The translations under genes and the position numbers were made by a program. Below are positions 3,748-44,230 of a DNA stretch of 64,000 nucleotides, in pieces; position 1 is the first letter of the stretch; every line of letters begins with the position of its first letter. Source of the DNA: an uncultured Lentisphaeria bacterium (GTDB lineage: Bacteria > Verrucomicrobiota > Lentisphaeria > Victivallales > UBA1829); NCBI GenBank assembly GCA_949282305.1, contig CASDPB010000053.1:16710-80709 (forward strand), written 5' to 3'. Below the pieces are notes generated by a model. It was not told where the DNA came from, made no database searches, and worked only from the letters and a program-made list of their open reading frames with translations.

Positions 3748-5862
3748 ATGAAGTTCACACAACTCACATCCGTTTTGTCGGCAATGTCCGTTCTGTTTGC
3801 GCTTTCAGGCATGGGACTTGGAGCGCAGGAGCAGGCACAGGGCGATGCCGGGAAGAGTGTGGCGCTGGAGTATGCCAAGGAGCAGTACCAGCCGCGCTAC
3901 AAAGCGAAGGTCACATGGGAAGGGAAAGACCTGATCCTCAGAACCGACACAGCAGAGTGGGATTCCGGGGTCAAGATCAATCCTCCGAAGGGGCAGTTCC
4001 TGGATCTTTCCAAGGGAAAAGTGCTTGCCGCCGATGTGGAGAATCTTTCCAAGACGAATCAGATGCGTCTGACCATGCACATTTCCAGCGGCAGCCGCAA
4101 GGACAAGAATTTCCGGGAAGCCTACACTGGTATCGGATTGAACCCCGGTGAGAAGCGCACCATGCGCATGTATCTGCCGCACAAGGCGATTTTTGAAGTC
4201 GGCAAGGATGCGCGCAACCTGAAGAATCCGCTCGACACGGACAAGATCAATGCCATTGAATTCAAGATGATCTGGCCTTATGAAGCGGGCAAGAAGGATC
4301 TGGCATACTGCCGTATTTCCAATCTCCGTCTGGAAGGCGAGCCGGAATATTCCAAGAAGATTCCGGCGGACAAGTATCTGCCCTTCATCGACACCTACGG
4401 GCAGTACAAGCATGGCGAGTGGGCGGAAAAGATTCATTCCGACGAGGATCTCAAGAAGAATCACGAAAAGGAACTTGCCGAACTGGAAAAGGTTTCCGCT
4501 CCGGAGGAGTGGGATCGTTTCGGCGGCTGGAAGAACGGCCCCAAGCTGAAGGCGACCGGATATTTCAGAGTCTCGAAATTCCAGGGCAAATGGTGGTTCG
4601 TCGATCCGGAAGGACGCCTCTTCTGGTCTGCGGGAATTGACGTGCTCCGCACTCACACCGACGCCACGCAGGGGAAAAAGCATCCGCAGTGGTTCTCGCA
4701 GCCCGTTCCCGCGGATGGAACGCTGCCGTTCACGCACTGGAACCTCCAGAAGAAATACGGCAAGGAAGATTATGTGGAGGATTTCTACAAGGTGCTCAAC
4801 AAGCGCATGACGGCGTGGGGCATCAACACCATCGGAAACTGGGGCGACAGAAGGCACATGCTCATGGGCGAGAAACCCTATGTCCTGTCTCTCTGCGACA
4901 ATGACCGCGACCTTCCGAAGTTCAAGGAAGTCGAAGTGAAAAACGGCGAGACCAAAATCAAGAACAGCCGTGTCAAGTTTTACGATGTGTTCGATCCGCA
5001 GTTTGAAGACCTGATGGGCAATATGCTTGCGAACCGCGCCGCGACCGATCCGATCGTGAAGAAGTCCATCACCGATCCGATGTGCATCGGCTATTTCGTT
5101 GACAACGAACTCCAGTTCGGCAATATCATGAAGGCTGTCATGAAGGCGCCCGCGGAACAGCCCGCGAAGGTGGAGTTCATCAAGGACCTGAAAGCCAAAT
5201 ACAAGGATTCCGTGGAGGAATTGAACAAGGCGTGGAATACGAAGTTCTCCACATGGGAGGACGTCGCAAACAATACTGTGACTCCCAAGGGCAAGGGATA
5301 CCGCACGGACGAGCGCGCGTTCTTCAAGAAGTTCGTGAACGAATACTTCCGGATCTGCCGCCAGGGAATCAAGAGCGTCGCTCCGCACAGACTCTATCTC
5401 GGATGCCGCTTTGTCGGATTCCGCAATGCGGGTGCTGTCTGGGAGGCTTCCACGAAACATTGTGACGTTTCCAGTGTCAATTCCTATGCGAACAGCATTG
5501 CGAACACGAATCGCGGCGACTTCCGTGACCGTCCGGTGATTATCGGGGAGTTCCACTTCGGAACCTATGACCGCGGCATGTTCTCCAACAGCCTGATGCC
5601 GCAGTACTCGCAGGAAGACCGCGCCGTCTCCTACAAGAGATACATGCAGGGAGCGCTGGTGCATCCGAACTATGTCGGAGCTCATTACTTCCAGCTCCGC
5701 GACCAGCCGCTGACCGGTCGCTATGACGGTGAAGGCTATCAGATCGGATTCGTCGACGTGGCGGACACTCCGTATCCGGAGATGACGAAAGCCGCGAGAG
5801 AAGTCGGCGAAAACATGTATCAGTACCGTGTAAACGGCAAACTTCAGAATGAGATGAAGTAA
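3748..5862 (+). CDS. Secreted glycoside-hydrolase-like protein (N-terminal beta-sandwich plus clan GH-A-like TIM barrel; family not assignable by eye, possibly GH50/GH42-like)
   Basis: 704 aa. RBS AAGGAAGGA before ATG 3748. Signal peptide MKFTQLTSVLSAMSVLFALSGMGLGAQE. TIM-barrel-type motifs GINTIGNWGD, FVDNELQFG (candidate acid/base NE) and VIIGEFHFG (candidate nucleophile E). Confidence 0.6.
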   Translation: MKFTQLTSVLSAMSVLFALSGMGLGAQEQAQGDAGKSVALEYAKEQYQPRYKAKVTWEGKDLILRTDTAEWDSGVKINPPKGQFLDLSKGKVLAADVENLSKTNQMRLTMHISSGSRKDKNFREAYTGIGLNPGEKRTMRMYLPHKAIFEVGKDARNLKNPLDTDKINAIEFKMIWPYEAGKKDLAYCRISNLRLEGEPEYSKKIPADKYLPFIDTYGQYKHGEWAEKIHSDEDLKKNHEKELAELEKVSAPEEWDRFGGWKNGPKLKATGYFRVSKFQGKWWFVDPEGRLFWSAGIDVLRTHTDATQGKKHPQWFSQPVPADGTLPFTHWNLQKKYGKEDYVEDFYKVLNKRMTAWGINTIGNWGDRRHMLMGEKPYVLSLCDNDRDLPKFKEVEVKNGETKIKNSRVKFYDVFDPQFEDLMGNMLANRAATDPIVKKSITDPMCIGYFVDNELQFGNIMKAVMKAPAEQPAKVEFIKDLKAKYKDSVEELNKAWNTKFSTWEDVANNTVTPKGKGYRTDERAFFKKFVNEYFRICRQGIKSVAPHRLYLGCRFVGFRNAGAVWEASTKHCDVSSVNSYANSIANTNRGDFRDRPVIIGEFHFGTYDRGMFSNSLMPQYSQEDRAVSYKRYMQGALVHPNYVGAHYFQLRDQPLTGRYDGEGYQIGFVDVADTPYPEMTKAAREVGENMYQYRVNGKLQNEMK

Positions 5863-26642: not shown

Positions 26643-26714
26643 GGTTTTGTGCTCCTGAACGGCGAAAAGGAGGCAAAGAACGGATGCGGCATGAATTTTC
26701 TCATTGTTTCCCTT

Positions 26715-28133: not shown

Positions 28134-28137
28134 TGCG

Positions 28138-29427: not shown

Positions 29428-29948
29428 TTCTTGCGGAATCCCGCGGTGACGCCGGATGCGCGGGATACGGCAGTGCTGCCGGTTCGCGCGATTTCGACGA
29501 TTTTGTAGTCCGACATCAGCGTCAGGAAATGCTCGATCTTCTCGGGTGTGCCGGAGATTGCGATGCAGAGTTCGTCCTTGTTGACGTTCGGGATGTTTCC
29601 GTGGAAAAGTTCCACGAGCTGAACAATCGCCACACGGGTGAGCTGGGTTGTCTTGACCTTGATGATTGCCAGTTCCAGTTCCAGATAATCTTCCGAATCA
29701 AGATCCGTGACGGAAACCACGTCGACCAGCTTGTTCAGCTGTTTTTCTATCTGTTCGAGCACATCGTCGTCGCCTCTTGTGACGATCGTCATGCGCGAAA
29801 GATTCGGGTCGTGCGTGTGGTTGACGGTCAGTGACTCAATATTGTAGCCGCGTCCGCTGAAAAGCCCCGCGATTCTGGCAAGTGCGCCGAATTTGTTTTC
29901 GACAAGCACCGAAATCGTATGCTGTTTGATGTCTTTTCCCATAATCAA
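29424..29948 (-). CDS. ilvN: Acetolactate synthase small (regulatory) subunit
   Basis: 174 aa. ACT domain HTISVLVENKFGALARIAGLFSGRGYNIESLTV plus the ALS small-subunit C-terminal domain. Confidence 0.9.
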   Translation of the reverse strand: MIMGKDIKQHTISVLVENKFGALARIAGLFSGRGYNIESLTVNHTHDPNLSRMTIVTRGDDDVLEQIEKQLNKLVDVVSVTDLDSEDYLELELAIIKVKTTQLTRVAIVQLVELFHGNIPNVNKDELCIAISGTPEKIEHFLTLMSDYKIVEIARTGSTAVSRASGVTAGFRKK

Positions 29949-29967
29949 TGCCCTTTGTTTAAGACTG

Positions 29968-31896
29968 TTACTTCAACATGACCTGTCCGCCGGTAACGGG
30001 GATCGCCTGTCCTGTTTCATATTTCTGCTCCACGGCGTAAAGGATCGCCTTTGCCACGTCCGCGGGGTAACAGCCGCGGTTCATCGGAACTTTTGCCTCG
30101 TAGAAACGCTTGACGTCTTCAACGGTCTTGGCGCCGGGAACCTTGCCGCTGTTCAGATACTGGACGAAAAGCCCGCGTTCGGGATTGCTCCAGAGCGGTC
30201 CGTCGAAGAAATTGCCGGGGCATACGCTGTTGACTTTGATGCGGTCCGCGACCAGTTCCATGGCGAAGCTCTGCGTAAGCCCGATTCCGCCGAATTTGCC
30301 GCCGGCGTATGCGCCGTTCTTATTGCTACCCTGAAGCCCGCTCTTGGAGTTGACCTGAACGATGTCGAGCCAGTCGCCGCCGTCCGCCGTTTCCGCCGCC
30401 ATGACGGCGGAGACATGCTTGACGCAGAGGAAATACCCGTTGTAGTTGATGTCCGTGACGAACTCCCAGTCCTTGAGGGAGAAGGTCTTGACGGAACCCG
30501 CCTTGAGCACGCCGGCATTGGCTACGAAAAGGTCGATGCCGCCGCAGAGCTTCGTGACGTCGCAGACCATTTTCGAGACGGAGCCTTCATCCGCGATATT
30601 GACCGCGACGGAGAACGCCTCCACCGCCGGATATTCCGCCTTTATGGTGTCCGCCGCTTTCTGCGCGCCTTCGACATTCAGATCGGCGATCACGATCACC
30701 GCGCCCTCTTTTGCAAGCTCTTCCGCGATGCCGTAGCCGAATCCCTGCGCGGCGCCGGTGACGACCGCCACTTTGCCTTTGAGTCTGCCGCCTGCGGACG
30801 GACTGGATTTCGCCGCCTGCGCACGACGGTAGGATTCCACCTCCCAGTTTTCAATGAACAGACGGTCGCGGTCGCTGAGGTAGTGTGGGCCGCCGAATGC
30901 CGCCGCAAGCTGTTTCACGAGTCCGGCGTCCGCCGCGAGAGCCGCCACGGTCGAAGCGCCTTTCAGCGTGTCGCCCGCGCAGAAAACGCCTTTTCCGGGG
31001 ACGCTGACCACCAGCGGTTTGAAGCCGTTGGCTTTTTCATACGCATCGACCTCTTCCTTTTTCGGGTCGTCGGACACCATCGGAAAGGATTTGGCATACA
31101 CAATGTGATCGGGGGAGAGCGGGCCTCCCGTGACTTCGAATTCGCCCGCCCAGGTGATGAATTTGCGCTGGACGGCTTCCCCTTCGCCCGCGCCGAGGAG
31201 GGTGCGGAGTTTCGGGGCGATCAGTTTGGATGCCTCGAAATCAGGTTCGGAGCGTTTGAGTTCCACGGCGACTCCGGCTTTGGCATACGCCGCTTTCAGA
31301 GTGGACATGATGTTGTCGTAAATTGCATTGATCTCCGTATCGGTATCCGCGCCGACAAACACGCCGTGATTCTGGAGGAAGATCACCTGGGGAGCGGTTC
31401 CCCTGGCTTTTTTGTATGCAGCCATCTCGTCCGCGACTTTGCGTGAAAGGGTGTATCCCGGATCAACATACGCGATCCAGAGAGCGTCCGGGAAGAGTTC
31501 CGCGCAGACTTTTGCGCCGTTTTCGGCACAGGTCATCCCGTTGACGAGAGCCGGATGGAGGTGCACGACATACCGGAACGGGATGAGTTCATGAAGCGGA
31601 GCCTCGACCGAGGGGCGTCCGGAAGATTCCGGACAGACCGCCGCCATCATGAATTCTTTCGCAATCACTTCGCGCTGCGTGACGTCGGACGGCATCTCAT
31701 GGGTGAAGATCTTTTCAATCAGCGCACGTTCCATTTTCACAAAATTTTCCGGTCTGATCTTTGCAAGCGCCACGCCGCTGGGCTTGACATAGAGGTATTT
31801 CTCATCTTTCACGGAGGTATTGCCCCCGCCGGCAAGGACATACGCCGGATCAGAACCGTATTTGACAGACAGTGCTGTGATCGTTTCGAGAGACAT
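29968..31896 (-). CDS. Bifunctional class II aldolase/adducin-domain and short-chain dehydrogenase protein (rhamnulose-1-phosphate aldolase/alcohol dehydrogenase-like)
   Basis: 642 aa. The N-terminal aldolase II-like region is YVLAGGGNTSVKDEKYLYVKPSG. The C-terminal SDR carries GKVAVVTGAAQGFGYG (TGxxxGxG) and the catalytic YAGGK (YxxxK). Confidence 0.85.
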   Translation of the reverse strand: MSLETITALSVKYGSDPAYVLAGGGNTSVKDEKYLYVKPSGVALAKIRPENFVKMERALIEKIFTHEMPSDVTQREVIAKEFMMAAVCPESSGRPSVEAPLHELIPFRYVVHLHPALVNGMTCAENGAKVCAELFPDALWIAYVDPGYTLSRKVADEMAAYKKARGTAPQVIFLQNHGVFVGADTDTEINAIYDNIMSTLKAAYAKAGVAVELKRSEPDFEASKLIAPKLRTLLGAGEGEAVQRKFITWAGEFEVTGGPLSPDHIVYAKSFPMVSDDPKKEEVDAYEKANGFKPLVVSVPGKGVFCAGDTLKGASTVAALAADAGLVKQLAAAFGGPHYLSDRDRLFIENWEVESYRRAQAAKSSPSAGGRLKGKVAVVTGAAQGFGYGIAEELAKEGAVIVIADLNVEGAQKAADTIKAEYPAVEAFSVAVNIADEGSVSKMVCDVTKLCGGIDLFVANAGVLKAGSVKTFSLKDWEFVTDINYNGYFLCVKHVSAVMAAETADGGDWLDIVQVNSKSGLQGSNKNGAYAGGKFGGIGLTQSFAMELVADRIKVNSVCPGNFFDGPLWSNPERGLFVQYLNSGKVPGAKTVEDVKRFYEAKVPMNRGCYPADVAKAILYAVEQKYETGQAIPVTGGQVMLK

Positions 31897-32086
31897 GTTT
31901 TCTGGCTCCTTTCATTGTTTGCAGTAACAATTCCGTAAAATAACCTGCAAATCAGTGATTTCAAGCGAAGAAGGGTGTCTCTTCCATGTTTTTAGCGGAT
32001 GGCTTTCCCGAAGGACGCGGGCGCGGAAGGTTTCAACTGACGGAGACCGCCGGGCAAAACGGGAACCGGCGGTTCCGGGAACGGGG

Positions 32087-33787
32087 TCATCTTTTTTCCG
32101 CGAACAGCTTTTTTACCGTTTCCGCGGCGAGTTTCGGGCGGCGATACTGGTCGAAGACTCCGGCGAGATTCTGGGCGAGCGGCTTGCAGCGGATGTCGGA
32201 ACCCTTCCGCAGATAGCTTTTCGCATCGTTGAACTGCCAGATCGCGAGTCCGCAGAGTTCCGGAGATGCGAAGACCTGTCTGATGACCTCCGCCAGATAC
32301 TCCGCCTGGAATTCCTCTGTCCATTGAGCTGCGGCGCGGTCGTGGCAGCCGTAGAGCCCGCAGCAGCCCATTTCGCTGACCATGATCGGCTTGTCCGGCG
32401 GATTGTACGTTTTGAAACGCTCTATGATTTTGTCGCGGTTTTCGCGGATGCGGGAAGTCGGTTCCGACTCCGTGTCTTCCGTGATCCAGCCGGGATAGGT
32501 GTTGTAGGCGACGATGTCCATGAGATCGGTGCAGATGTCGTTCCAGACCGCTGCGCATGCGAATGTGACGAGGCGGCTTGCGTCTTCCTCTTTGATCGCT
32601 CCCGTCAGTCGCCGGCAGATGGCGCGTCCTTCCTTCCAGCGGGAATGGAGTTCGTTCAGGAACGCCCAGATGATTACGCATGGATGGTTGATGCTGTTCC
32701 TGACCATGAGGCGCGTCTGTTTTTCCTGCAGGGCGATGAATTCCGGGTCCGCCATCTGTTCTTTCGTATTGCCCCAGCCGAGACTTTCCTCCCATACCAG
32801 GAACCCCATGCGGTCGCAGAGATCAAGAAAGCGCTGATCCTGCGGATAATGACAGCCCCGAACGAAATTGCAGTTCAGCGCCTTCAGGTTCTGGAGGTCT
32901 TCGATCATGATCTGTTCCGGCATCGCCGGGCCGAATTCCGGGTGGGATTCATGACGGTTGAAGCCTTTCAGAAAGACCGGTTTCCCGTTCAGGAGAATCT
33001 GCTTTTTCCCCGTCCTGACTTCACGTATGCCGAAAGATTCGACGATGCGGTCGTTTCCCGTTCCGACTTCCAGCGTATGCAGATTCGGCGTTTCCGGAGA
33101 CCAGAGCCTGAAGTCCGGCACAACCGCCTCAAGTGAGGCGGAATGAGCTTGTATCGTGAGCGTCTCAGACCTGAATGCGCTTTCCGTGTCGAATTTCAGC
33201 TCGACGCCGAGCGTTTCCGGCACATCGCCCCGGAACAGAAAGCGCAGATTCACTTTTCCTGTCCTGTAGTCCGCCGTGCGTATCTGAACGCGGTCGATGA
33301 AACAGCCTTCCGGCAGAAGATGCAATGTGACGCCGCGGTAGAATCCGCCGAATGCGTAAAAGTCATAATAAGGCTGGAACAGCTTCATTTTTTCGGGATC
33401 GAAACGGTTGTCCAGTGCGGCGCAGAGGGTGTGCTTTCCCGCCGTAACCCTCCCCGTTTCAAATTCGACGCCGGAGTAGGGCAGGTTCGTGAAACCGATT
33501 TCCCTTCCGTCAATCCAGAAGCGTGCGCGCAGCCCGAGCCCGCCGAGTTTCAGGAGAGCGTTCGGCGCATTCCGCTCCAGCGTGAACTCCGTGCGGTAAA
33601 GTGCGATTCCCCGCTTGCAGTAATATGCGGGGGTGCAGTCGAACGCTCCGGGGACGCACATGATGTCATGGAACGTGAACTCCGCCGGATCAAGCTGTTC
33701 CAGTTCCGCGTCGCCGATGAAATTGAAGTCCCATGCTCCGTCGAGAACAAGGATTTTTCTGGATGGATAAAGTGGATAGGCGTTCAT
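32087..33787 (-). CDS. Glycoside hydrolase family 2, beta-glucuronidase-like
   Basis: 566 aa from ATG 33787 (GGAGG at about 33800; the ORF-track start 33895 was rejected). GH2 motifs NFVRGCHYPQDQR and NHPCVIIWAFLNE (acid/base E), MVSEMGC (nucleophile E) and WQFNDAKSY. Confidence 0.85.
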   Translation of the reverse strand: MNAYPLYPSRKILVLDGAWDFNFIGDAELEQLDPAEFTFHDIMCVPGAFDCTPAYYCKRGIALYRTEFTLERNAPNALLKLGGLGLRARFWIDGREIGFTNLPYSGVEFETGRVTAGKHTLCAALDNRFDPEKMKLFQPYYDFYAFGGFYRGVTLHLLPEGCFIDRVQIRTADYRTGKVNLRFLFRGDVPETLGVELKFDTESAFRSETLTIQAHSASLEAVVPDFRLWSPETPNLHTLEVGTGNDRIVESFGIREVRTGKKQILLNGKPVFLKGFNRHESHPEFGPAMPEQIMIEDLQNLKALNCNFVRGCHYPQDQRFLDLCDRMGFLVWEESLGWGNTKEQMADPEFIALQEKQTRLMVRNSINHPCVIIWAFLNELHSRWKEGRAICRRLTGAIKEEDASRLVTFACAAVWNDICTDLMDIVAYNTYPGWITEDTESEPTSRIRENRDKIIERFKTYNPPDKPIMVSEMGCCGLYGCHDRAAAQWTEEFQAEYLAEVIRQVFASPELCGLAIWQFNDAKSYLRKGSDIRCKPLAQNLAGVFDQYRRPKLAAETVKKLFAEKR

Positions 33788-33971
33788 GATGTTGTGACCT
33801 CCTGTTTTTCCGTTGTTTGCGTTAAAATATCCTCCTGCCGTTGTCCGCGCAATCGGATTTTTGGCTGAAAAACCGGACTTTTGAGGCATCTGCATAGGAT
33901 TTTCAGTTGTAAAAAAGGTTCTGAAATGCTAAAATATATATTTGAAACTTGCAACTTTCTGGGAGACTACC

Positions 33972-35165
33972 ATGCAGACTGTAACAGATGAAATCAGAAA
34001 TTTCCTCGCCAACTCTTCCGGCATCCGCAAAATGTTTGAGGCGGGAATTGAATTGAGGAAAAAATACGGCGACGACAAAGTGTATGACTTCAGCCTCGGC
34101 AATCCGGATCTTCCGCCCCCGCCTGAAGTCGGAAGCGCACTCGGGAAGATCGCGCTCCGAGCCGGGGAGCCGTTTTCCATCGGCTATATGCCGAACGCCG
34201 GGTATCCCGCTCTCCGCGAAATACTTGCCCGGAAACTTTCCGCGGAGCAGGGTGTGAAGATACCGGCTTCCAGCGTGATTGTCACCTGCGGTGCGGCGGG
34301 CGCGATCAATGTTTTTTTCCGTTCGGTTCTTTCCGCCGGGGATGAGGTTATCACCCCGAGTCCGTATTTTGTGGAGTATGGTTTTTACGCGGGAAACTTC
34401 GGCGGCAGACTGGTGCCGGTGAAATCCGTGGATTTCACTTTTGAACTGGATGTGGATGCGATGGCAAACGCCGTCAATGAAAAAACGCGCGCGATCATCC
34501 TCAATTCCCCGCACAACCCGACCGGTCAGATTTATACCCGCGACCAGCTCCAGGCGCTTGCGAAAATCGTTGCGGATGCGGAAAAACGTTACGGGCGCGC
34601 AATTTACATCGTCGCGGATGAGCCTTATCGTTTCCTGAACTTCGACGATGCGGATATTCCTTCCGTGTTCGAGTATTTCCCGCACAGCGTCGTGATCGGT
34701 TCTTTCTCTAAGAGTCTTTCCCTTGCCGGCGAGCGTATCGGTTATATTGCCGCGAATCCCGCGATGGAGGGGATTGACGATCTGATGAACGGACTGATTC
34801 TCTGCAACCGCATTCTCGGCTTCGTGAATGCTCCGGCGGTCGCCCAGCAGATTCTGATGGAGTGCGCCGATGCACAGGTTGACCTGAATATCTACCGTTC
34901 CCGCCGTGCCGCGATGGCGGAAGTCCTGACGGATGCCGGAATCAAGTTCACAATGCCGAAAGGCGCGTTTTATTTCTTCCCGAAATCGCCTGTCGCGGAC
35001 GACAAGGTATTCATTGATGCGCTGGTGAAGGAGTGTGTGCTTGCCGTTCCCGGAAGCGCGTTCGGCGGTCCCGGTTATTTCCGTATGGCGTTCTGCGTGG
35101 ACGAGAAAGTGATCCGTGCCGCCGCCCCGGGCATGAAACGCGCCGTCGAAGCGGTGCTGAAGTAA
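33972..35165 (+). CDS. Pyridoxal-phosphate-dependent aminotransferase, class I/II (aspartate aminotransferase-like)
   Basis: 397 aa from ATG 33972 (MQTVTDEIRNFLANSSGIRKMFE). PLP-lysine motif SFSKSLSLAGERIGY. Also NSPHNPTG. Confidence 0.9.
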   Translation: MQTVTDEIRNFLANSSGIRKMFEAGIELRKKYGDDKVYDFSLGNPDLPPPPEVGSALGKIALRAGEPFSIGYMPNAGYPALREILARKLSAEQGVKIPASSVIVTCGAAGAINVFFRSVLSAGDEVITPSPYFVEYGFYAGNFGGRLVPVKSVDFTFELDVDAMANAVNEKTRAIILNSPHNPTGQIYTRDQLQALAKIVADAEKRYGRAIYIVADEPYRFLNFDDADIPSVFEYFPHSVVIGSFSKSLSLAGERIGYIAANPAMEGIDDLMNGLILCNRILGFVNAPAVAQQILMECADAQVDLNIYRSRRAAMAEVLTDAGIKFTMPKGAFYFFPKSPVADDKVFIDALVKECVLAVPGSAFGGPGYFRMAFCVDEKVIRAAAPGMKRAVEAVLK

Positions 35166-35186
35166 AGTTCTTCTGACCGGGAAAAC

Positions 35187-35198
35187 AGCCTGATGCCG
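35187..35198 (+). repeat. Left copy of the 12-bp direct repeat AGCCTGATGCCG
   Basis: An exact 12-mer is also present at 40589-40600. This copy lies 22 nt after the aminotransferase stop. Confidence 0.6.
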
Positions 35199-36224
35199 CA
35201 GTGCCCTGCGCCTGGCTGGTCATTGTAGAAACCTCCGGTCCTATATTGGAGTTCGGCTCACCAGCCGGACTCTGTATAGAACAGGAGGTTGCAATGACAG
35301 AAGATAGAAGCAGTCTATTCATAATCGAAGAAGCCGGGCAGTGTCCAGATCATATCCCCATGCCGGTGGGTATTCCCCGAATTTGAGTGTATCGCAGTTT
35401 GCAGACTGTTTGATGGGTAAGAGTTTCTTGAAGGTCTTTGACCGTCATGCACAGCTGAAACGCCGGCATGACAACTGCCATTTTGGGGGGCGTGCGACTT
35501 TGTTCAAAGTTCTTTGAGGGGCAGGGCGGTATCATGCTCTTACAGGGCTGGAACAAGTCACCGGCTCAGCACGGCAGGTGGTTTTGACTTTCCGCTGGAG
35601 ATGGTGTTTTTCCATCAGATAAAAAAGCAGTTTAACGCCTATGGATTCACAATCCTGCCGCATTCCTGCGCAGAAAAGAACGGCTGCCCCGGACGAATTC
35701 CTCCCCGGCCAGTTTTGCTTTTTCCGGCAATTTTATTGGAGCTCCTGCGATTTGGTGCATTTTCGATCAGAAAAGGTTCAGGATGATGCCAAGATACTCC
35801 AAGTTCAAAAAACTTCCAGCTTTCGGTCAGCGTATGGGATTTTCCTCTTCCGATTGAAATATTGATTGCCTATTTACCCGCCAATATCCAGTAGCTAGTT
35901 TTTTCTCTAGTTCAACTGATGCCGGAGATTGTTTTTACCGGCAGTCTATGAAATATTTCAGGAGTCTGCCTGTCATGGACAATAATTTTGTGGTTGATCT
36001 GAACAATATCACAACCGAGTGCTTCAAGCACATCCATATCAATTTCAGCTAACATCTGTATAATACCAATACAGCGGAACGATTTTCCGGCTGTCTAGAA
36101 AAACGTAGTAAATCCAGACATGTAAGCAGATGGATTCCTTGTATTTACCTCCGAGGTCAATGGGACAGCGATCTGCAGGTCATTTATTTTATGTTACAGT
36201 GACACGTTAACATGAGTTCATAAA
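35199..36224. other. About 1 kb without an intact gene, with protein-like frames broken by stops (possible decayed gene or mobile-element remnant)
   Basis: Only short ORFs occur here. Hand translation of the minus strand gives stretches such as GKSHTLTESWKFFELGVSWHHPEPFLIENAP, IGVKLLFYLMEKHHLQRKVKT, DLGGKYKESICLHVWIYYVFLD and LAEIDMDVLEALGCDIVQINHKIIVHD. Each ends in a stop or frameshift. Their identity is unknown. Confidence 0.3.
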
Positions 36225-38270
36225 TTAATCCTTGCTAAGAATATCTGAGCAGATGTTTTTGCCACGGAAAATATAACTTCCCGTATTACTGTTGACCGTT
36301 TTCCCGGTCAGGGAATGGAAACCCGGCGGCAAGGTGATTTCTGCTTCCGCTATGCCGGGACCGATACCGCAGATCAATACCCGCTGTGCTCCGTGCCCGT
36401 CATCAAATCGTGCGGCGTAAACCTCCCCGGAAATCGTTTTTACCGGTAACTGTTCAGGTGGAATATCAGACAGTATGAATGGTTCCAGTTTACGTAGATT
36501 TCGGGCGATGCGACAAACTTGCGGCCAGCGTTTTTTGAATTGATTCGGATCTGGACCTTGGAGCAGATCAAAGTAGGAATACATGATGAAGCCTTTGGAA
36601 CCGAAAATTGCTTCCAGCAAACACATAGACATGATTTCTTCTTCTGTTGGATAGCGAAATTCGGTCAGATAGACTTTCAGGTTGTTGACTGCTGTCGGAC
36701 GGTAATTGCCGACATTGAAGATTTGCGGGACGGTCCAGAGCGGCATTCCGTTATGAGAATTGCACAATACACGCCGGGCACTTTTCATAAAACGCAATAC
36801 TTCTGACATATTTTGGATATCAGCGCGAGCAATTGGGTAGGGGTCAATTCCGAGAATATCGTAACCGGAAGCATAATATTGCAGATTTTCTTCCTGGAAG
36901 AGTACAGAAAGAGTCGGATGTCCGGGGTCCAGACGATTGACCAGACGGCGCCGTTCCAGCAGGGCTTTAATCCGATTCGTATGAAGTTCATCACATATAT
37001 ACCAAGCCAATAGTGCCGGATGACTTTTCCAGCGTTCAACGATTGCCTGTATGATTCGGTCTGCCCCCTCGTATCCTTGCCATTTCAGCCATTTGGAATC
37101 GTAGGGTTCAAAAGGGTAGACCTGAGTAAATGAGAAGATCAGTTTCAGCCTGTTTTCCGCCAAGCAATCCATTACGGCATCAATCGCTTCCAGACCGTTT
37201 TTACCGGGATACTTCAGTTCCATGCTGTTGTAGGATAGTACACAGTTGAAACCGCCATTGGCAATCATTTTTATCTCTGTCGGACTCATCTGCCCCGTAT
37301 AAAGTCCTATAGGCATGAACGGTTTCCCGTTTACGATAGTACGTCCGAGCTCATCTATTGAAACTCTATTCGCCTGTTTTCCTGCAATAATTTGCAGAGG
37401 AATATTTTTTTCAGCCAGAATATAACAGTTTGCTGTATCAAGCAGCTTCATATGCAATTCCATTGTTCCTTTCGGCAACTTGCCGGGATGAATTAAAATC
37501 CGATTGTTATTTATTGGTGAAATCGTATGGAATAATGAATTGCCGTCTTTTCGGATATCCACCCATGCCTGATATATGGGGGATCGCCGCTGTTTATAAT
37601 CGAATATTCCCACGACGAAAGAAGATAGTTCAAGTGTTGCAGTATTGTCACAGTCAATTATTTCCTGTATCGGCATGATTAATCCGGTATACCAGTTACC
37701 CCCGTTTTCTTCATATAGAAAGGCATCATCAAATATTGCGGTTCCGGTCGTTCCGGGTCGTAGATAAAGTGCAATGGAATAATAATAGTCCGGATTCGCA
37801 ACAAAAGTTTGTTCCAGTTTGGTCCAGTCGGAGTTCCCCCGCAGGTTCTTCAGATAATAGCCACTCACATATTTTCCTGTTTTACGATCGCTCCATTCAA
37901 GACAGACACTTGCGCCTTCTCCTTGGACTGTATGTGTTTTTACCCACATGCCGAAGCGGTATTTGACGCCGGGCTTCAAATTGCGAAGTGGAATTCCCGG
38001 TAGAATATATGAGTCCGGAGCAGTTCGCCGATAGAGCAGAGCATTGGTGTAACTTCTGCCGATTCCTTTTTCAACGCTGATCCCGTGTTTACCGATGTTT
38101 TGCCAACCATGTTCTCCTTTTTCAAAATCTCCGTTTGGAAACAGATTGATTCGTTCTTTCAACTGACTGGAAGATAATCTCTTATAATTCTCCAATGTAA
38201 TTTCTTCCGCAGTCGTGTTCAGGATGGATAACAGAGTAGCCAGAATTATCATGTAAGTGGAAGTTTGCAT
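36225..38270 (-). CDS. Secreted CBM4/9-like plus TIM-barrel glycoside-hydrolase-like protein (family unknown)
   Basis: 681 aa with low G+C. Hydrophobic N-terminal signal [25 protein letters not shown]-like module (NGDFEKGEHGWQNIG...AIFDDAFLYEE). A TIM-barrel-like region (GFNCVLSYNS, LAWYICDELH, ILGIDPYPI). Its start overlaps the upstream stop by 1 nt (TAATG). Confidence 0.55.
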   Translation of the reverse strand: MQTSTYMIILATLLSILNTTAEEITLENYKRLSSSQLKERINLFPNGDFEKGEHGWQNIGKHGISVEKGIGRSYTNALLYRRTAPDSYILPGIPLRNLKPGVKYRFGMWVKTHTVQGEGASVCLEWSDRKTGKYVSGYYLKNLRGNSDWTKLEQTFVANPDYYYSIALYLRPGTTGTAIFDDAFLYEENGGNWYTGLIMPIQEIIDCDNTATLELSSFVVGIFDYKQRRSPIYQAWVDIRKDGNSLFHTISPINNNRILIHPGKLPKGTMELHMKLLDTANCYILAEKNIPLQIIAGKQANRVSIDELGRTIVNGKPFMPIGLYTGQMSPTEIKMIANGGFNCVLSYNSMELKYPGKNGLEAIDAVMDCLAENRLKLIFSFTQVYPFEPYDSKWLKWQGYEGADRIIQAIVERWKSHPALLAWYICDELHTNRIKALLERRRLVNRLDPGHPTLSVLFQEENLQYYASGYDILGIDPYPIARADIQNMSEVLRFMKSARRVLCNSHNGMPLWTVPQIFNVGNYRPTAVNNLKVYLTEFRYPTEEEIMSMCLLEAIFGSKGFIMYSYFDLLQGPDPNQFKKRWPQVCRIARNLRKLEPFILSDIPPEQLPVKTISGEVYAARFDDGHGAQRVLICGIGPGIAEAEITLPPGFHSLTGKTVNSNTGSYIFRGKNICSDILSKD

Positions 38271-39013
38271 TAGAAGTACATCCTTATTCCGTTTTCACTC
38301 CAAAATATGAATGGTTTGGTTAAATCAAATTCCCGTCCTATTGGGGATAGTTCTATGCCATGTCTGGATTCCACATGCAAATCTCCGTACGTAGCATTGA
38401 CACTTTGCGAGTGGCGTGCATGCATTGCCGCCGAAGTGTCTAATGAAGTTTTCTGTGCGCGAAACCACCAATTCTGTAACTGATTGGCGTTCCTAGTGTC
38501 AGCGAAAATTATTTGCCTGGTCGGATTCAGCAGTTTGTTTATCGCAATATTGCAGGTGGTAGTATCATTTGCCGCAGTGTGTCCTCCTCCTCTGTAATAA
38601 AGAAAGGTATTCAGACCGTAGCCACATGGTTCAGTTCCATTCAAGGTTGATTCCTGGGTGTAATAAGGCGGATAGGTCGGGCAGGCAAATAGTTTATATG
38701 CGCCTGATCTCAGATAATCGTCATTGTCGTCAGCTTTAGATACTGAACCATAATAACCGTTTCTGATTAACAGATTATACCAGAATGAATTACTGTCTTT
38801 ATATATATATTTACCGGCAAACGTGACATCGTTATTATCATTGAGATACATTCCGGTTATTGTTCCGATTTGTTTCAGGTTGCTGACACATTTGATGCTC
38901 ATAGCCTTTGCCTTGGCTTTGTTTAATGACGGCAATAGCAAAGCAGCTAAAATGGCGATGATCGCAATTACGACAAGCAGTTCTATCAATGTGAAATTTT
39001 TCCGTTTCCCCAT
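38270..39013 (-). CDS. Prepilin-type N-terminal domain protein (DUF1559 / H-X9-DG-like pseudopilin paralog), copy 3, divergent
   Basis: 247 aa with very low G+C. It starts [50 protein letters not shown]. The C-terminal motif is a variant, [18 protein letters not shown] (GDLH instead of DGH). Confidence 0.85.
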
Positions 39014-39063
39014 TCAGCAGTCCTCCGTTTTTGTTGAATTTTATTTTTCCTGATTTGCTGTTT

Positions 39064-40152
39064 TCAAATTTCGTCACAAGTCTGCGGCGCTTCCTTCAGT
39101 TCCGCTACGGATTCACCTTCCCTGATAGTCAGGCCGATATAATCAATCGAATTCATTTCCGGATCGTTCCTGCGGCGTTCAAAAAGATTCCATGCCAGCT
39201 CCATGATCTTTGCCGTGGAGTTCACGACTGAAGTCGGCTTCGGGTGCAGATCATCCCGTTCCAGACCGTCCGAGGAGATGAGGGATATGTCCCTGCCGAT
39301 TGTCAGCCGCCGCTGTTTCATATACTCATAGACATTCTTCAGGAACCAGTCGCTTACCACCAGAGCCGTCGGTTTCGGGGAAGAGGCAAACATGGCGTCC
39401 AGACGCTCGCAGAGCTGTTCCCGTTTCTGGGAGTAGTGTATGACCCACTCCGGACGGACCGTTAAACCGTTTTCGCTCATGAAGCGGTAGAAGGCTTCAC
39501 GGCGCAGCAGGTCTGTGAGGCTGGCAAAGCCCAGATCCACCGTATGGATGAACCCGATCCTGCGGTGTCCGTGCCGGAACAGATACTGCAGCTGCATTTC
39601 GACCAGCTCCGGCGCATCAATGACTGCCGGTCCCGTATTCGGATAATACCGCGGCAGCACTACCGCATAGTTGATTCCGTGATGATCGAAAATTTTCTGT
39701 ATGTCATTGTGATGGGGCATCATCAGCAGGGCGTTCCTGATATTGTATTTGGTTATGATCTCCTCATATTCTGATATCGGCGCATACCAGCTGATCCGGT
39801 GAAAGCGCGGAGTGAGCTGATGCCGGGCGGCACCGGCAAGAAAATGGTTGATGAGCTCCATCGCAAAATTGTCCGTCTCGACGTAGCTGATTTCGGAACA
39901 GGCGACCAGGTCGATGATATGAAGGCTTTCTTCATGAATCCTTTCCGTCAGGTAAATGCCGGAGCGGGCACGGGTTTCCAGAACTTTGTCGTGCTTCAGC
40001 TTGCGGATGGCGTTTTCCAGCACATTGCGTCCCAGCTGAGATTCCTGCTGCATCCGGCGGAGCGGCGGCAATGCTTCTCCGGCGTTTAAATTCACCAGAC
40101 ATTGCCGTATATACTCTTCCGCCTGTCGATTCTTTATGTCTCTGATGCTCAT
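39064..40152 (-). CDS. Transcriptional regulator: GntR-type winged HTH fused to a LacI/PBP1-type sugar-binding domain
   Basis: 362 aa. The N-terminus (LPPLRRMQQESQLGRNVLENAIRKLKHDKVLETRARSGIYLTE) is GntR-like. The C-terminal part resembles the LacI effector domain (ALVVSDWF..., IGRDISLISSDG). Confidence 0.7.
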   Translation of the reverse strand: MSIRDIKNRQAEEYIRQCLVNLNAGEALPPLRRMQQESQLGRNVLENAIRKLKHDKVLETRARSGIYLTERIHEESLHIIDLVACSEISYVETDNFAMELINHFLAGAARHQLTPRFHRISWYAPISEYEEIITKYNIRNALLMMPHHNDIQKIFDHHGINYAVVLPRYYPNTGPAVIDAPELVEMQLQYLFRHGHRRIGFIHTVDLGFASLTDLLRREAFYRFMSENGLTVRPEWVIHYSQKREQLCERLDAMFASSPKPTALVVSDWFLKNVYEYMKQRRLTIGRDISLISSDGLERDDLHPKPTSVVNSTAKIMELAWNLFERRRNDPEMNSIDYIGLTIREGESVAELKEAPQTCDEI

Positions 40153-40531
40153 TGGATTCCCCCTTTTGCTGATTTATATTATAAACAATAACAGCGCAAT
40201 GTCAATAGGAAAACAGCAAAAAAACGGAAAAATATTCTTAAATTGTGCTGTTTTATTATAATCTGTGTTGAATTTTGATGAAAGCGGCAATTTGTCCGGA
40301 ACAGAAGGACCGGGGATGTGCTGTTTTTCAAGCAGGGAGGCGCGGAGATCCGGGAAATCTCAGGGAACACCGTCATGCGGAAATATCATACCGCATTCCT
40401 CCCGGAAGCGCTGCTGATGCTTCCGGACGTTTCCCGCCGGTCTTTCCGCAAGAGCCATGAACCGGAACCCCTTCTCAACCTGAGAAAGCAGGGGAACGGG
40501 CAGACTCGAAGACATTCCGGAGAAGACACAG

Positions 40532-40576
40532 AAAAAAAGAGAAGACTGCGGCGGCGATGCCGCATTCTGTCTTCTC
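40532..40576 (-). terminator. Rho-independent terminator downstream of folP
   Basis: The minus strand reads GAGAAGAC...GTCTTCTC (8-bp outer stem, inner stem GCGGC/GCCGC) followed by T7. It lies about 50 nt after the folP stop. Confidence 0.65.
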
Positions 40577-40588
40577 CGTCCTATTGAA

Positions 40589-40600
40589 AGCCTGATGCCG
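40589..40600 (+). repeat. Right copy of the 12-bp direct repeat AGCCTGATGCCG
   Basis: An exact 12-mer is also present at 35187-35198. This copy lies 27 nt beyond the folP stop codon. Confidence 0.6.
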
Positions 40601-40626
40601 GAATCCAGTTCGCAGTTTTGATTCCC

Positions 40627-41427
40627 TTATTTACTGCTGCATTGCGCAAAAGCGGTCATTGCCTCCCGCGCCATCGGAACATTGTGGACACGCACAAATT
40701 CAATCCGTTGAGCAGTCAGGGCGGCGAGGACTCCGGCAGTGGCGTAATCGCGCTCCGCCGGTTTCCTGCCTTCGCAGATCTGCGCCAGGAAGGATTTGCG
40801 GGAGGGCGCATAGAACAGAGGCGCTTCAACTCTCTCTCTCAGCTTTGAAGCCCCTCTGACAAGTTCAAAGTTCTGCTCCTGCGTTTTGGCGAATCCCAGA
40901 CCGGGGTCCAGCAGGATTGAATCAGGGTGGATTCCTGCCGCGACCGCACTTTCAAAGGCTTCCTGAAGACGGGACGCCACTTCGGAACAGACGTCGTCGT
41001 AAATAAGATTTTCCGGATTCTGCATTGTCTGCGGCGTTCCGCGCATGTGCATCAGGATGACCGCCGCGTCGCGGGATGCGACGACGGAAGCCATATCCGG
41101 ATCGAAAGTCATTGCGCTGATGTCGTTGATGATTTCCGCACCGGCGTCCAGAGCCGCCGCCGCCACCGCTGCTTTGCGGGTATCCACACTGACAACCGCT
41201 TCCGGGCGTTTCTCCTTCAAGGTGCGGATCACAGGAATGATCCGCGCAATTTCCAGAGGAACGGGCACTTCTTCGGCGCCCGGCCGCGTGGATTCCGCGC
41301 CGATGTCAATGGCGCAGGCTCCGGCATCCAGCATTTCAAGAGCGCCTTTCAGCGCCTGTTCCATATGGATGAAACGCCCGCCGTCGCTGAAGGAATCCGG
41401 AGTCACATTCAGGATTCCAAAAATCAT
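40627..41427 (-). CDS. folP: Dihydropteroate synthase
   Basis: The start is set at ATG 41427 (MIFGILNVTPDSFSDGG, the canonical DHPS N-terminus). The longer ORF-track start at 41514 would overlap gyrA. Confidence 0.9.
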   Translation of the reverse strand: MIFGILNVTPDSFSDGGRFIHMEQALKGALEMLDAGACAIDIGAESTRPGAEEVPVPLEIARIIPVIRTLKEKRPEAVVSVDTRKAAVAAAALDAGAEIINDISAMTFDPDMASVVASRDAAVILMHMRGTPQTMQNPENLIYDDVCSEVASRLQEAFESAVAAGIHPDSILLDPGLGFAKTQEQNFELVRGASKLRERVEAPLFYAPSRKSFLAQICEGRKPAERDYATAGVLAALTAQRIEFVRVHNVPMAREAMTAFAQCSSK

Positions 41428-41461
41428 CGGTATCCGCGCGGCTCCGTAATCCAGCGAACGG

Positions 41462-44230
41462 TTATTCCTCAGTCTTAGTCTCGTCTGTTTCATTCGGAGC
41501 ATCCGTATCTGCATTTTCGTTCAACTCTTCCGGGGGAACTTCCATTTCTTCAAAATCGTCGTCCTTTCTGCCGAATGGAATCTGATCGACTCCCGCGGCG
41601 ACCATGACGTTCTCTTCGTTTTCCGCAGCCGGGCTTTCGCTTGCTTCGACTTCCACGACGATTGTGGCGCCCGTGACTTTGTCGCCTTTGCGGAGATCCA
41701 TGATACGCACGCCCATGGAGGCGCGTCCGACAATGCGGATTTCATCTACGGGAATCCGGGAAACCTGTCCGCGCTCGGTTGTCAGGATGAGTTCATCGCC
41801 ATGCTTGACGCGGAGGGCGGCGATCACGACTTCGCCTGGACGGAGATTCAGATTCTTGACGCCCTTTGCTCCACGTCTGGTCAGACGATAAGTATCGACA
41901 TAACTGCGTTTGCCCATGCCTCCGCTCGTCACGACCAGAAGCTGCGGTCTTCCGTCGTCCGCGATTTCCTCCTCCTCTGCGTTTTCCGTCTCTCCGGCAC
42001 TTTCCGCGGCTTCCTCTTCCGGTGTCTCCGCTGGTTCCTCCGTTTCGACGTTTTCGGCTGTTTCATCGACTTCCGGCAATTCGCTGACTGCGCCGGACGC
42101 GGGAACAACCTCCATGCTGACGATCTCGTCGTCCGCGAGTTTGAAACGGATTCCCGTCACGCCGCGTGTGGCACGTCCCATCGTGCGGACGTCGGTTTCC
42201 ACAAACCGGCACGCCATTCCCTTTGCCGTGGAGAGGATGACTTCACTGGCGCCGTCCGCGATTTCTGCCCCGATCAGGTCGTCGCCTTCCTCGATGACGA
42301 TTGCGCGCAGTCCGATGTTTCTCAAATGTCTGAACTCCTTGAGTGCGGTTTTCTTGATGATGCCGCGCTTCGTCGCCATGACAATGGAGAGATTTTCCTG
42401 CTCGAACATCTCTTTTTTGAGTGTCAGCATTGCGCGGATCTGTTCACCGGGCTCGATTTTGATCAGATTGACGATTGCCTTGCCCTTGCCGGTTCTTGCG
42501 CCTTCGGGGATGTCGTAAACATTCAGCCAGTACATGAATCCGCGGTCCGTGAAGAAGAAGATCAGGTCATGGCTGTCCGCGTTGAACAGATGCTCGACGT
42601 GATCTTCGTCCTTCGTCTCCATGCCGATGATGCCGACGCCGCCGCGGTGCTGCGTGCGGTAGGTGTCTGCGGGAACGCGCTTGATATAGCCGGTATTGGA
42701 AACGGTGATGACGCAGGAATGGCGCGGAATCAGGTCTGCATAGTTGATGTCGCCTTCGTCGTAGGTGATTTCAGTCCGTCGCGGTTCGGCATATCTGTTC
42801 TTGACGTCGACGAGCTCGTCCTTGATGACGCCGAGGCGCAGTTCACGGCTTGCCAGAAGACTGCGGAGGTATTCGATGAGCTTCATCAATTCGTCGTATT
42901 CCTTCTGGAGATCCTCAATCGCCAGTCCGGTCAGCTGATGCAGTCTCATATCGAGGATTGCCGTCACCTGGATTTTGGAAAGTCCGAAGCGTGCCATCAG
43001 GGCGGCTCCGGCTTCTTCTCTGGTGCGGGACTCGCGGATGATTTTCACGACCTCGTCAATGTTCTGCACCGCGATCAGCAAACCGCTTACGATGTGGGCG
43101 CGCGCTTCCGCTTTGTTCAGTTCAAACTGAGTCCTGCGCGTCACGACCTCCAGGCGGTGATCCACGAATGCCTGAAGAATCTGCGCCAGATTCATCGTGC
43201 GCGGGCGGTTGTGATCGACGACCAGAAGCTGGCAGCCGAGGATGCTCTCCATCTGCGTATGCGCGTAAAGCTGGTTCAGGACGACGGATGCCATTGCGCC
43301 GCGTTTGATCTCTATTACGATTCTGATGCCGGTGCGCAGACTTGTCTCGTCGCGCAGGTCGGAAATGCCGGTGATTTTCTTGTCCTTGACCAGATCGGCA
43401 ATCTTCTTGACCATCAGTTCCTTGTTGACGGCGTAGGGAATCTCCTTTACGATGATGACTTCCTTGCCGTTCTGCTCCACGATCTCCGCTTTGGCGCGGA
43501 CTTTGATTACTCCGTGTCCTGTCTCATAGAGACTGCGGATCGGATCGAGACCGCAGATGATCGCACCGGTCGGGAAGTCGGGGCCCGGCAGGAATTTCAT
43601 CAGGTCGCGCACCGGAGCGGAAGGATTTTCCAGCAGGTGAATGGTGGCGTCGATCACTTCTCCCAGGTTGTGCGGCGGAATGTTGGTCGCCATGCCGACG
43701 CCGATGCCTACGCTGCCGTTCACCAGCAGGTTCGGGAATTTTGCAGGCAGAACTTCCGGTTCCGTGGTGTTCTCGTCGAATGTCGGGATCATGTTGACGG
43801 TGTCTTTGTCAATGTCGCTCAGAAGCTCTTCCGTGAAACGCTCCATGCGGCACTCCGTGTAACGGTATGCCGCGGGCGGGTCTCCGTCGATGCTTCCGAA
43901 ATTTCCCTGACCGTCGATCAGCGGCATGCGCATGGAGAAGTCCTGCGCCATGCGGACCAGCGTATCGTAAACCGAAGCGTCGCCGTGGGGATGATACTTT
44001 CCGATCACTTCACCGACCACGCGCGCGCTTTTCATGTGGGGACGCGATTTCACAAGGCCGAGCTGGCGCATCGCATACAGGATTCTGCGGTTGCAGGGCT
44101 TGAGCCCGTCGCGGACGTCAGGTATGGCGCGCCCTACGTTCACGCTCAAAGAATACTGCAGATACGCAGTGTGCATGATGTCTTCGATATTTACAGGAAA
44201 ATCCCGTTTTTCGATTGCGTTGTCACTCAT
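41462..44230 (-). CDS. gyrA: DNA gyrase subunit A
   Basis: 922 aa. Contains [21 protein letters not shown], the [15 protein letters not shown] and the active-site AAYRYTE. The C-terminal beta-pinwheel repeats carry an internal acidic insert (aa 711-761) and an acidic tail. Confidence 0.97.

Follow-up and report, generated by a model that had tools for sequence, protein, structure and literature searches.

How did a regulator gene, a pseudopilin gene and a hydrolase gene come to lie between two convergent core genes, one for a class I/II aminotransferase and the other folP, in an uncultured Lentisphaeria bacterium? The question arises at a 5.4-kb interval of a 64,000-nucleotide (nt) stretch of contig CASDPB010000053.1, which we analysed as a whole and call the window. 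A first-pass annotation had named these three genes, the last encoding a protein with a carbohydrate-binding module (CBM) and a TIM barrel, and our analysis agrees with it on that content (Table 1). It had also explained them as a horizontally acquired, self-contained module enclosed by a 12-bp direct repeat. Only part of this explanation survives comparison with related loci: the segment at about 35702–39010 appears to be foreign and to have arrived by replacement, but it does not belong to a self-contained unit that includes the regulator. We think it probable that a pilin–hydrolase pair was replaced in place within a mosaic interval, and that no single element was inserted.

Probable replacement of a pilin–hydrolase pair

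We compared the window with fetched related loci, which carry L-numbers. Homologs of its aminotransferase place the source bacterium in the Victivallales (Lentisphaerota). Among species representatives, the closest aminotransferases are those of L001 (Lentisphaeria UBA11452; 94% amino-acid (aa) identity) and L002 (89% aa). The window and L001 are syntenic over 25425–35223 (91.8% nt identity), and this homology ends exactly at 35223. Past the breakpoint, L001 carries a GntR regulator, a pilin and a 1162-aa DUF6259/CBM6 protein, and L002 has UDP-glucose dehydrogenase and ExbB/TonB genes at the same place. Homologs of the regulator form a series at 96%, 74%, 72% and 70% identity, the 96% one lying on L089/L090, a 177-kb ENA scaffold. 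In the orientation of the window, L089 reads aminotransferase, then a cassette that we call X (reg346, pilin230 and DUF6259-1160), then, on the opposite strand, CBM655, pilin225 and reg362, and finally a LacI-type regulator.

DNA homology between the window and L089 is confined to three blocks, at 33714–35223 (90.6% identity), 35589–35701 (90.4%) and 38925–40330 (91.7%). From 35702 to 38924 there is none, save a 45-nt match at chance level. Homology thus breaks at 35223/4, 35588/9, 35701/2, about 39010 and 40330/1. On the regulator side, near-identity to L089 spans the regulator stop, the 50-nt intergenic stretch and the ribosome-binding site (RBS) as far as the pilin ATG, beyond which it breaks down; the 89 nt that seem homologous within the pilin gene are the conserved leader and helix, which show 67–86% nt identity among unrelated paralogs (80% in the leader stretch between the window and L089). 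We tried this leader identity as a breakpoint marker and set it aside as uninformative, since all paralogs share it at that level. On the other side, the 113-nt block at 35589–35701 aligns cleanly to L089, where it lies 53 nt downstream of the CBM655 stop.

The regulator is 95.6% identical to its L089 counterpart in aa and 91.7% in nt, compared with 72% to L095 and 70% to L096. Its divergence from L089 is the same as that of the aminotransferase (90.6% nt), which argues that the regulator and its promoter were vertically inherited. With this identity and a normal GC content at third codon positions (GC3), the regulator is native, and it can no longer be counted as a part of an acquired cassette.

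The two genes behind it tell a different story. L089 is collinear over the entire cassette (3958 nt) with L095, which belongs to a more distant, Victivallis-like genome, and their pilins and hydrolases are 67% and 69% identical, alongside 73% for their regulators. The window's regulator stands at a similar distance from L095 (72%), but its pilin is only 34% identical in aa to that of L089 and 44% to that of L095, mostly in the N-terminal part. When the first 40 aa are left out, the pilin is 24% identical to that of L089 (E 0.003). The hydrolase is 33% identical to that of L089 and 34% to that of L095. Because the pilin–hydrolase identities between L089 and L095 are in step with the regulator while the window pair is far off, we take the L089 type to be ancestral and the window type to be derived. 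The pattern is that of an in-place replacement: the flanks are at background divergence (90.4–91.7% nt), the interior is abruptly non-homologous in DNA and encodes distant homologs of the displaced genes, and the relatives keep the ancestral type.

The converse, that the window pair is ancestral and the L089 lineage received an L095-like pair, strikes us as very unlikely. In its favor, the L089 pair is atypical for L089 (GC3 0.42–0.47, against 0.63 in the regulator), and the window-type hydrolase is no singleton: P0263, encoded on a 6,640-bp Logan contig from another sample, is a variant that is 94% identical. Against it, the collinearity of L089 and L095, with pair identities of 67–69% in step with the regulator at 73%, is a signature of orthology, and the window-type genes are equidistant (32–37%) from all known relatives. 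Since P0263 comes from another sample, the window-type hydrolase circulates in at least one other lineage. All but one of the differences between P0263 and the window hydrolase fall in the first 60 and the last ~48 aligned residues, the central ~300 being near-identical; this mosaic pattern suggests recombination among window-type alleles.

The source of the incoming pair was sought in several collections. The best match to the hydrolase outside its own 90% cluster is 37–38% identical among 5.8 billion proteins. Plasmid and phage DNA gave no match, and viral and JGI metagenome contigs scanned with the hydrolase held no relatives. Exact-protein look-ups with the aminotransferase, regulator and hydrolase found no match, and cluster members place the regulator and hydrolase in the collection. 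Because the protein database includes the genome's own assembly (P0264, encoded on a 239-kb contig), the same search argues against a source copy elsewhere in this genome.

The base composition of the interval, in GC and tetranucleotide profiles slid along the window, shows which part deviates. The low GC content claimed for the whole of 35187–40600 is real, and is the strongest outlier of the window, but the tract runs from about 35.6 to 39.2 kb, or 3.3 of the 5.4 kb. In 1-kb steps, GC is 0.41–0.455 at 35.5–39.5 kb, against a mean of 0.539 (sd 0.035) for the window, and this is the sole strong GC outlier (20.5–21.5 kb, at 0.485, is barely flagged). The tetranucleotide distance peaks at 37.0–39.0 kb (robust z 7.9) and is likewise an outlier only at 35.5–39.5 kb; steps that start at or beyond 39001 have a normal profile, and 40153–40626 is compositionally native. 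The remainder of the bracket is therefore not deviant. Among 38 open reading frames (ORFs), only the pilin (GC3 0.427, z −3.0) and the hydrolase (GC3 0.447, z −2.7) are GC3 outliers; the regulator has native composition (GC 0.531, GC3 0.656, z +0.3).

Could the pair have changed without horizontal transfer, either by divergence and GC drift in place under relaxed or diversifying selection, or by an ectopic copy from another cassette of the same genome, anchored in the pilin leader? The slot may favor AT-rich genes, as the orthologous-type pair of L089 is also low in GC. The leaders of paralogous pilins, at 67–86% nt identity, are possible anchors for recombination, and the window holds three further pilin genes in two other cassettes of this kind. 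On the other hand, 33% aa identity and an abrupt loss of DNA homology beside flanks at 90–92% nt are impossible by point divergence. A donor cassette is also missing: the protein database, this genome's own assembly included, contains no paralog above 38% identity, and the other cassettes of the window have mostly ordinary GC3 (0.53–0.73), none near 0.43–0.45. We regard both versions together as unlikely, and return to replacement from outside.

Under replacement, the interval would be a mosaic that lies at a break in synteny, in a region whose carbohydrate-active enzyme (CAZyme) cassettes turn over fast. The resident cassette, consisting of a promoter/operator, a GntR-LacI-type regulator, a pseudopilin and a secreted CBM-glycosidase, would have been vertically inherited. 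Its two effector genes and a 3' tail of ~0.5 kb (~35702–39010) would then have been replaced in place by a distantly homologous pair of lower GC, with crossovers at the pilin start codon on one side and in the 113-nt 3' block on the other, presumably by double recombination in the shared flanks. Because the regulator, promoter, intergenic stretch and RBS were left untouched, the new pair would have come under the old regulatory control. Two neighboring pieces would be unrelated to this event: a possible 5'-truncated IS200-like tnpA fragment, where relatives carry another cassette, and 296 nt that supply the terminator of folP. Cassette X was either lost in the window or gained in the L001/L089 lineage.

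The mosaic is not an assembly chimera, since contigs from three other samples jointly tile 31496–51514 at 99.9–100% identity. The contigs of three other samples also match the folP region at 99.93–100%, and the regulator is bridged by a 415-nt overlap between L083 and L085. The only exceptions in the tiling are both in L084, namely a 79-N scaffold gap (window bases 38077–38080 unaligned) and a 31-nt indel at 36149–36179.

The 12-bp repeat and the reading as an inserted islet

The 12-mer AGCCTGATGCCG is present at 35187–35198 and 40589–40600, where it had been reported. From the aminotransferase stop to the first copy there are 21 nt, and from the folP stop to the second 26 nt. Could the two copies be a target-site duplication or an attachment (att)-type repeat, left when a 5.4-kb regulator/pilin/hydrolase islet inserted between an aminotransferase and a folP that were once adjacent? 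Their placement is what speaks for it: no other repeat pair in the window has its two copies in post-stop zones, and by random placement ~0.1 pairs would be expected to follow any two stop codons within 45 nt. The low GC inside the bracket points the same way. The argument that this placement is not due to chance holds insofar as the placement is unusual, and fails insofar as the pair was chosen post hoc.

The junctions themselves contradict insertion. The corresponding aminotransferase flanks of L001 and L089 contain AGTCTGATGCCG, and both stay homologous to the window across the left 12-mer and for a further 25 nt, as far as 35223, which directly contradicts a junction at the 12-mer. The right copy sits in the 3' untranslated region (UTR) of folP, between the folP stop and folP's own terminator, so the terminator would need to be borne by the islet. 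The enclosed regulator and promoter are native (92% nt to L089, normal GC3), and low GC covers only part of the bracket, as described above.

Nor is AGCCTGATGCCG limited to the two flanks. A third exact copy lies at 5590–5601 inside a coding sequence (CDS), and it resembles the left copy more than the right one does: the match between the left copy and the third is exact for 19 nt (5587–5605/35184–35202), compared with only 12 nt between the left and right copies. Exact direct-repeat pairs of at least 12 nt are common in the window, with 348 observed against ~234 expected under a Markov-2 model. The 12-mer was also looked for in the related loci. It was not seen in the 97 that come from outside the same strain and is therefore not a dispersed repeat family. 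No extended similarity was found around any of its copies, and no terminal inverted repeats adjoin the direct repeats; the repeats of the region are short matches at chance level. We conclude that the native aminotransferase 3' flank and the folP 3' UTR share these 12 bp by chance.

The aminotransferase 3' flank has further short matches of its own, a 14-nt direct match (712–725/35178–35191) and a perfect 14-nt inverted repeat (35173–35186/36298–36311) whose second arm is in the hydrolase gene. No extended similarity surrounds the 19-nt match or the direct 14-nt match, the two of these three that were checked. We regard all three as effects of chance or codon composition.

An empty site, with the aminotransferase next to folP, was proposed as a check and was not found. 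Neither folP nor gyrA occurs within 10 kb in any of 80 related aminotransferase loci (flanks of up to 10 kb each). On the other side, three relatives (L099–L101; folP 84–85% aa identical) keep gyrA–folP, followed by a DUF4153 gene.

The search for remnants of an integrase or transposase covered all ORFs and selected frame translations of the spacer with Pfam and NCBIfam. It found no integrase and only a sub-threshold IS200-like fragment. The TnpA-like peptide (...DHIPMPVGIPRI/LSVSQFADCLMGKSFLKVFDRHAQLK...) is encoded across one frameshift and was joined by eye; it matches NCBIfam NF033573 (E 8e-4, 19.6 bits, below the cutoff of 55) and Pfam Y1_Tnp (PF01797; E 0.04), and its HUH motif reads DHIPM. 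As the match covers profile positions 47–102, the gene would be truncated at the 35223/4 breakpoint; the fragment itself seems to be cut short on both sides, at 35224 and 35588. The fragment lies in 365 nt (35224–35588) that stand where L001 and L089 carry the 5.6-kb GntR/pilin/DUF6259 cassette X, and that have no DNA homology to any fetched locus. The IS200 family is not known to make target duplications.

With repeats off the homology junctions, no empty site, no recombinase that would make such repeats and a composition that is only partly distinct, the interval does not look like an island, and we consider an inserted islet extremely unlikely. The "1 kb of decayed sequence" that was thought to belong to it is a composite of three unrelated pieces (Table 1).

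In-place replacement of the pilin–hydrolase pair remains the reading that we favor, and several observations weigh against it. No donor lineage was found, the best protein match outside the cluster being 37–38% identical. The ancestral-type pilin and hydrolase of L089 (11139–13805) are themselves low in GC (0.43 and 0.46; GC3 0.42 and 0.47), compared with a GC3 of 0.63 in the L089 regulator and a GC of 0.52 over the L089 locus, and the L095 orthologs are GC-rich; low GC at this slot is therefore no proof of foreign origin and no simple marker of replacement. All relatives are metagenome-assembled contigs, and the crossover positions come from one pairwise comparison. Because the leader is common to all paralogs, the proximal breakpoint can only be placed between ~39013 and 38925. 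Both 12-mers lie less than 30 nt from two stops, with a nominal chance of ~3e-4 for this gene pair. Lastly, the IS200 call depends on sub-threshold hidden Markov model scores of a hand-patched peptide, and a comparison of the fragment with PDB sequences gave no match.

Cassette turnover and likeness to known systems

The modules of this window had been taken for mobile units. We find turnover of cassettes in a slot, but no repeat-bounded transposition. Two further cassettes of the window, ordinary in composition, repeat the pattern of regulator, pilin and CAZyme, as do the surroundings of hydrolase homologs. L001 (16833–20795) and L089 (9666–14027) have flanks that are 97% identical and wholly different cassettes in the same slot: L001 holds a GHL6-like 662-aa enzyme and a 316-aa LacI-type regulator, and L089 holds reg362/pilin225/CBM655. 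Because the two differ here, cassette turnover at the slot is real.

A second, independent case comes from L095 (2489–3844) and L096 (9894–11246). Their regulators are 88% identical in aa, and their DNA aligns (84% nt) from the promoter through the regulator to nt 114 of the pilin gene and no further. Beyond the pilin start the hydrolases are unrelated, a 652-aa CBM-TIM protein in L095 and a 799-aa GH123 (glycoside hydrolase family 123) enzyme in L096.

It is tempting to speculate that promoter/operator, regulator and RBS form a fixed expression socket in Victivallales, into which cognate pilin–glycosidase pairs are exchanged between strains and species with no dedicated recombinase. The window and L089, L095 and L096, and the whole-cassette swap between L001 and L089 are all in keeping with this idea, which we put forward as a rather doubtful generalization. 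The best match of the window pilin is the pilin beside a window-type hydrolase in L088, weak evidence that pilin and hydrolase co-vary. Such co-variation could mean that each pseudopilin has a dedicated enzyme partner, for example in secretion, surface display or substrate capture. The replacement would further show the pseudopilin and its hydrolase moving together, a modest yet concrete hint at the role of the very large families of prepilin-like paralogs in the Planctomycetes-Verrucomicrobia-Chlamydiae (PVC) group.

The event is of a known kind, in-place gene replacement in glycan-utilisation loci, of which this is a new and well-resolved case. Allelic replacement of glycan loci through conserved flanks is familiar from capsule (cps) switching in Streptococcus pneumoniae (dexB–aliA), from O-antigen loci and from variants of polysaccharide-utilisation loci. 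As in cps-type switching, the flanks are at background divergence, the interior is abruptly non-homologous, atypical in composition and filled with analogous genes, and there is no dedicated recombinase. The present case differs in that the unit has two genes, that one breakpoint is exactly at a start codon, and that the resident regulator, promoter and RBS are kept; the host (Victivallales) and the pseudopilin–CAZyme cargo also differ.

Other comparisons are less close. Like islands and transposons bounded by direct repeats, the interval has a low-GC tract between core genes, a short repeat near both ends and a trace of a transposase. Unlike them, its repeats are off the homology junctions, no integrase or empty site was found, the regulator inside is native, and the sole transposase trace is IS200-like. 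The likeness to an integron expression platform lies in a fixed promoter, regulator and RBS followed by exchangeable coding cargo, seen twice independently. This differs from an integron in having no integrase and no attI/attC; the exchange presumably occurs by homologous or homology-facilitated recombination. Finally, prepilin-like families of the PVC group (PF07963 + PF07596 + TIGR04294) are found beside CAZymes. The window pilin shares with them the N-terminal motif and a variable C-terminal domain, and its gene adjoins a LacI/GntR regulator and a glycosidase, a pattern present three times in the window. It differs from them in lacking a detectable DUF1559 and in having H-X9-DL, not H-X9-DG. 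In the literature, no description of such pseudopilin–CAZyme cassettes was found.

A repeat-bounded mobile islet of regulator, pilin and CAZyme, if true, would be a new kind of mobile element, and the evidence does not support it. What we see would instead be cleanly resolved turnover of glycan-degradation genes in a poorly studied gut phylum: a foreign pilin–hydrolase pair placed precisely behind a resident regulator, with base-level breakpoints for CAZyme diversification in Victivallales.

Proteins, regulatory signals and layout of the interval

The pilin has the leader MGKRKN|FTLIELL and a C-terminal H-X9-DL motif. Its N-terminal cleavage and methylation motif matches TIGR02532 (21.7 bits against a cutoff of 16.3), with a further match to the GspG N-terminus. 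It has no match to PF07596 (DUF1559) or TIGR04294, and the cassette-A pilins of the window do match PF07596.

The hydrolase has a signal peptide, and its ATG overlaps the pilin stop as TAATG, an arrangement of translational coupling. An AlphaFold2 (AF2) model (predicted local distance difference test (pLDDT) 92.2, predicted template modeling (pTM) score 0.87) comprises a jelly-roll CBM, an Ig-like sandwich, a (beta/alpha)8 barrel and a C-terminal sandwich. In Foldseek, nearly all of the top 50 PDB matches are GH2 enzymes, with probability 1.0 but a template modeling (TM) score of only ~0.29, and a search with the family profile matched a GH158 chain in part (E 6.7e-11, 115 positions). The invariant pair D427-E428 closes the strand 420–427, which we take as beta-4; no invariant Glu follows the strand taken as beta-7 (W512...Q516). 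From the barrel and the GH2-like order of domains in the model, the protein may be a clan GH-A-like enzyme (GH2/GH158-like).

The regulator, whose ORF is 39064–40152 (−), combines a GntR winged helix (PF00392, E 2e-7) with a C-terminal periplasmic-binding-protein fold (Peripla_BP_3, PF13377, E 4e-15). Upstream of it lies a sigma-70 promoter with a 12/12 match (TTGACA-16-TATAAT) at 40205–40178 (−), and a palindrome, AAAACAGC...GCTGTTTT, abuts the −35 element (region 40178–40259, minus strand). The core of this region is kept even in L095 and L096, and in L095 both arms of the palindrome are changed compensatorily (AAATCAAC/GTTGATTT). From these sequence features we infer that the palindrome is the regulator's operator, and that the regulator probably controls the regulator–pilin–hydrolase unit from this conserved promoter/operator. 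The three genes most likely form a sugar-responsive operon. A sequence that resembles a half-site, GAAAACAGCA, overlaps the regulator stop at 39054–39066.

At the other end, the intrinsic terminator of folP (−) consists of a hairpin at 40576–40539 and a U-run to 40532 (folding z −2.1). No other element stands out in RNA folding: shuffled sequences fold as well as the 113-nt block, the aminotransferase flank and the tail do. An Rfam scan of 35000–40800 at E ≤ 1 had no match. The 296 nt at 40331–40626 that hold this terminator are homologous neither to L089 nor to the folP relatives L099–L101, whose homology stops at 40625.

Table 1. Features of the aminotransferase–folP interval and the third 12-mer copy (coordinates are positions in the window).
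Feature	Position	Strand	Evidence or match
Third AGCCTGATGCCG copy	5590..5601	+	In frame (S-L-M-P) inside GH42-like CDS
Class I/II aminotransferase, left core gene	33942..35165	+	Pfam Aminotran_1_2 E 1.8e-47; 94% aa to L001
Native aminotransferase 3' flank with 12-mer copy 1	35166..35223	+	Aligns to L001 and L089; homology ends at 35223 in both
Window-specific 365 nt with possible frameshifted, degenerate IS200/IS605-like TnpA fragment (~35283–35520)	35224..35588	+	
Conserved 113-nt non-coding block, distal edge of putatively replaced segment	35589..35701	−	90% to L089/L090 13858–13971
Low-GC (~0.40–0.44) non-coding tail, 523 nt, of putatively replaced segment	35702..36224	−	
Secreted CBM4/9 + Ig-like + (beta/alpha)8 glycoside-hydrolase-like protein, 681 aa	36225..38270	−	Pfam CBM_4_9 E 4e-6
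Prepilin-type pseudopilin-like protein, 247 aa	38270..39013	−	Pfam N_methyl (PF07963) E 5e-7
Native regulator (GntR winged helix-turn-helix + LacI-type sugar-binding domain, 362 aa) and 50-nt intergenic stretch with RBS	39014..40152	−	
Conserved regulator promoter/operator region	40153..40330	−	88% to L089–L094
Window-specific 296 nt with folP terminator and 12-mer copy 2 (40589–40600)	40331..40626	−	
folP (dihydropteroate synthase), right core gene, overlaps gyrA	40627..41514	−	Pfam Pterin_bind E 2e-77

The low-GC tail at 35702–36224 showed no homology to L089 and no protein-family or tblastx signal. Within it, the 31 nt at 36149–36179 are missing from the L084 contig (ERZ16268048, another sample), which is otherwise 99.9–100% identical. 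We also considered a second hydrolase copy in the tail, suggested by a 'PVKTISG' match to the hydrolase C-terminus, and rejected it, as the match is only a 20-nt repeat at 90% identity (E 0.15). In tblastn and tblastx searches of the spacer and of 40153–40626 against all fetched proteins and loci, no remnant appeared besides the conserved blocks.

Independently assembled contigs of this strain are interrupted within the regulator gene: two stop at 39871, and a third begins at 39919. A further sample shows the same gene split between 39505, where contigs end, and 39515, where they resume. Strain variation may lie behind these breaks, or else a repeat shared by paralogous regulators.

Upstream of the aminotransferase, the gene called in L084 encodes a 602-aa GH2-like protein (32087–33895, −). 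The plus-strand ORFs 31955–33136 and 33143–33868 in this region match no Pfam family and are apparently shadow ORFs. ENA annotations call an 89-aa ORF at 40318–40587 (+); as it has no family match and runs through the hairpin of the folP terminator, it is probably spurious. Elsewhere in the window, a 29-nt exact repeat, CCGCCCTGCGGGACATTGCCGTAACCGCC, lies within 49307–49359, its copies beginning 24 nt apart (49307 and 49331).

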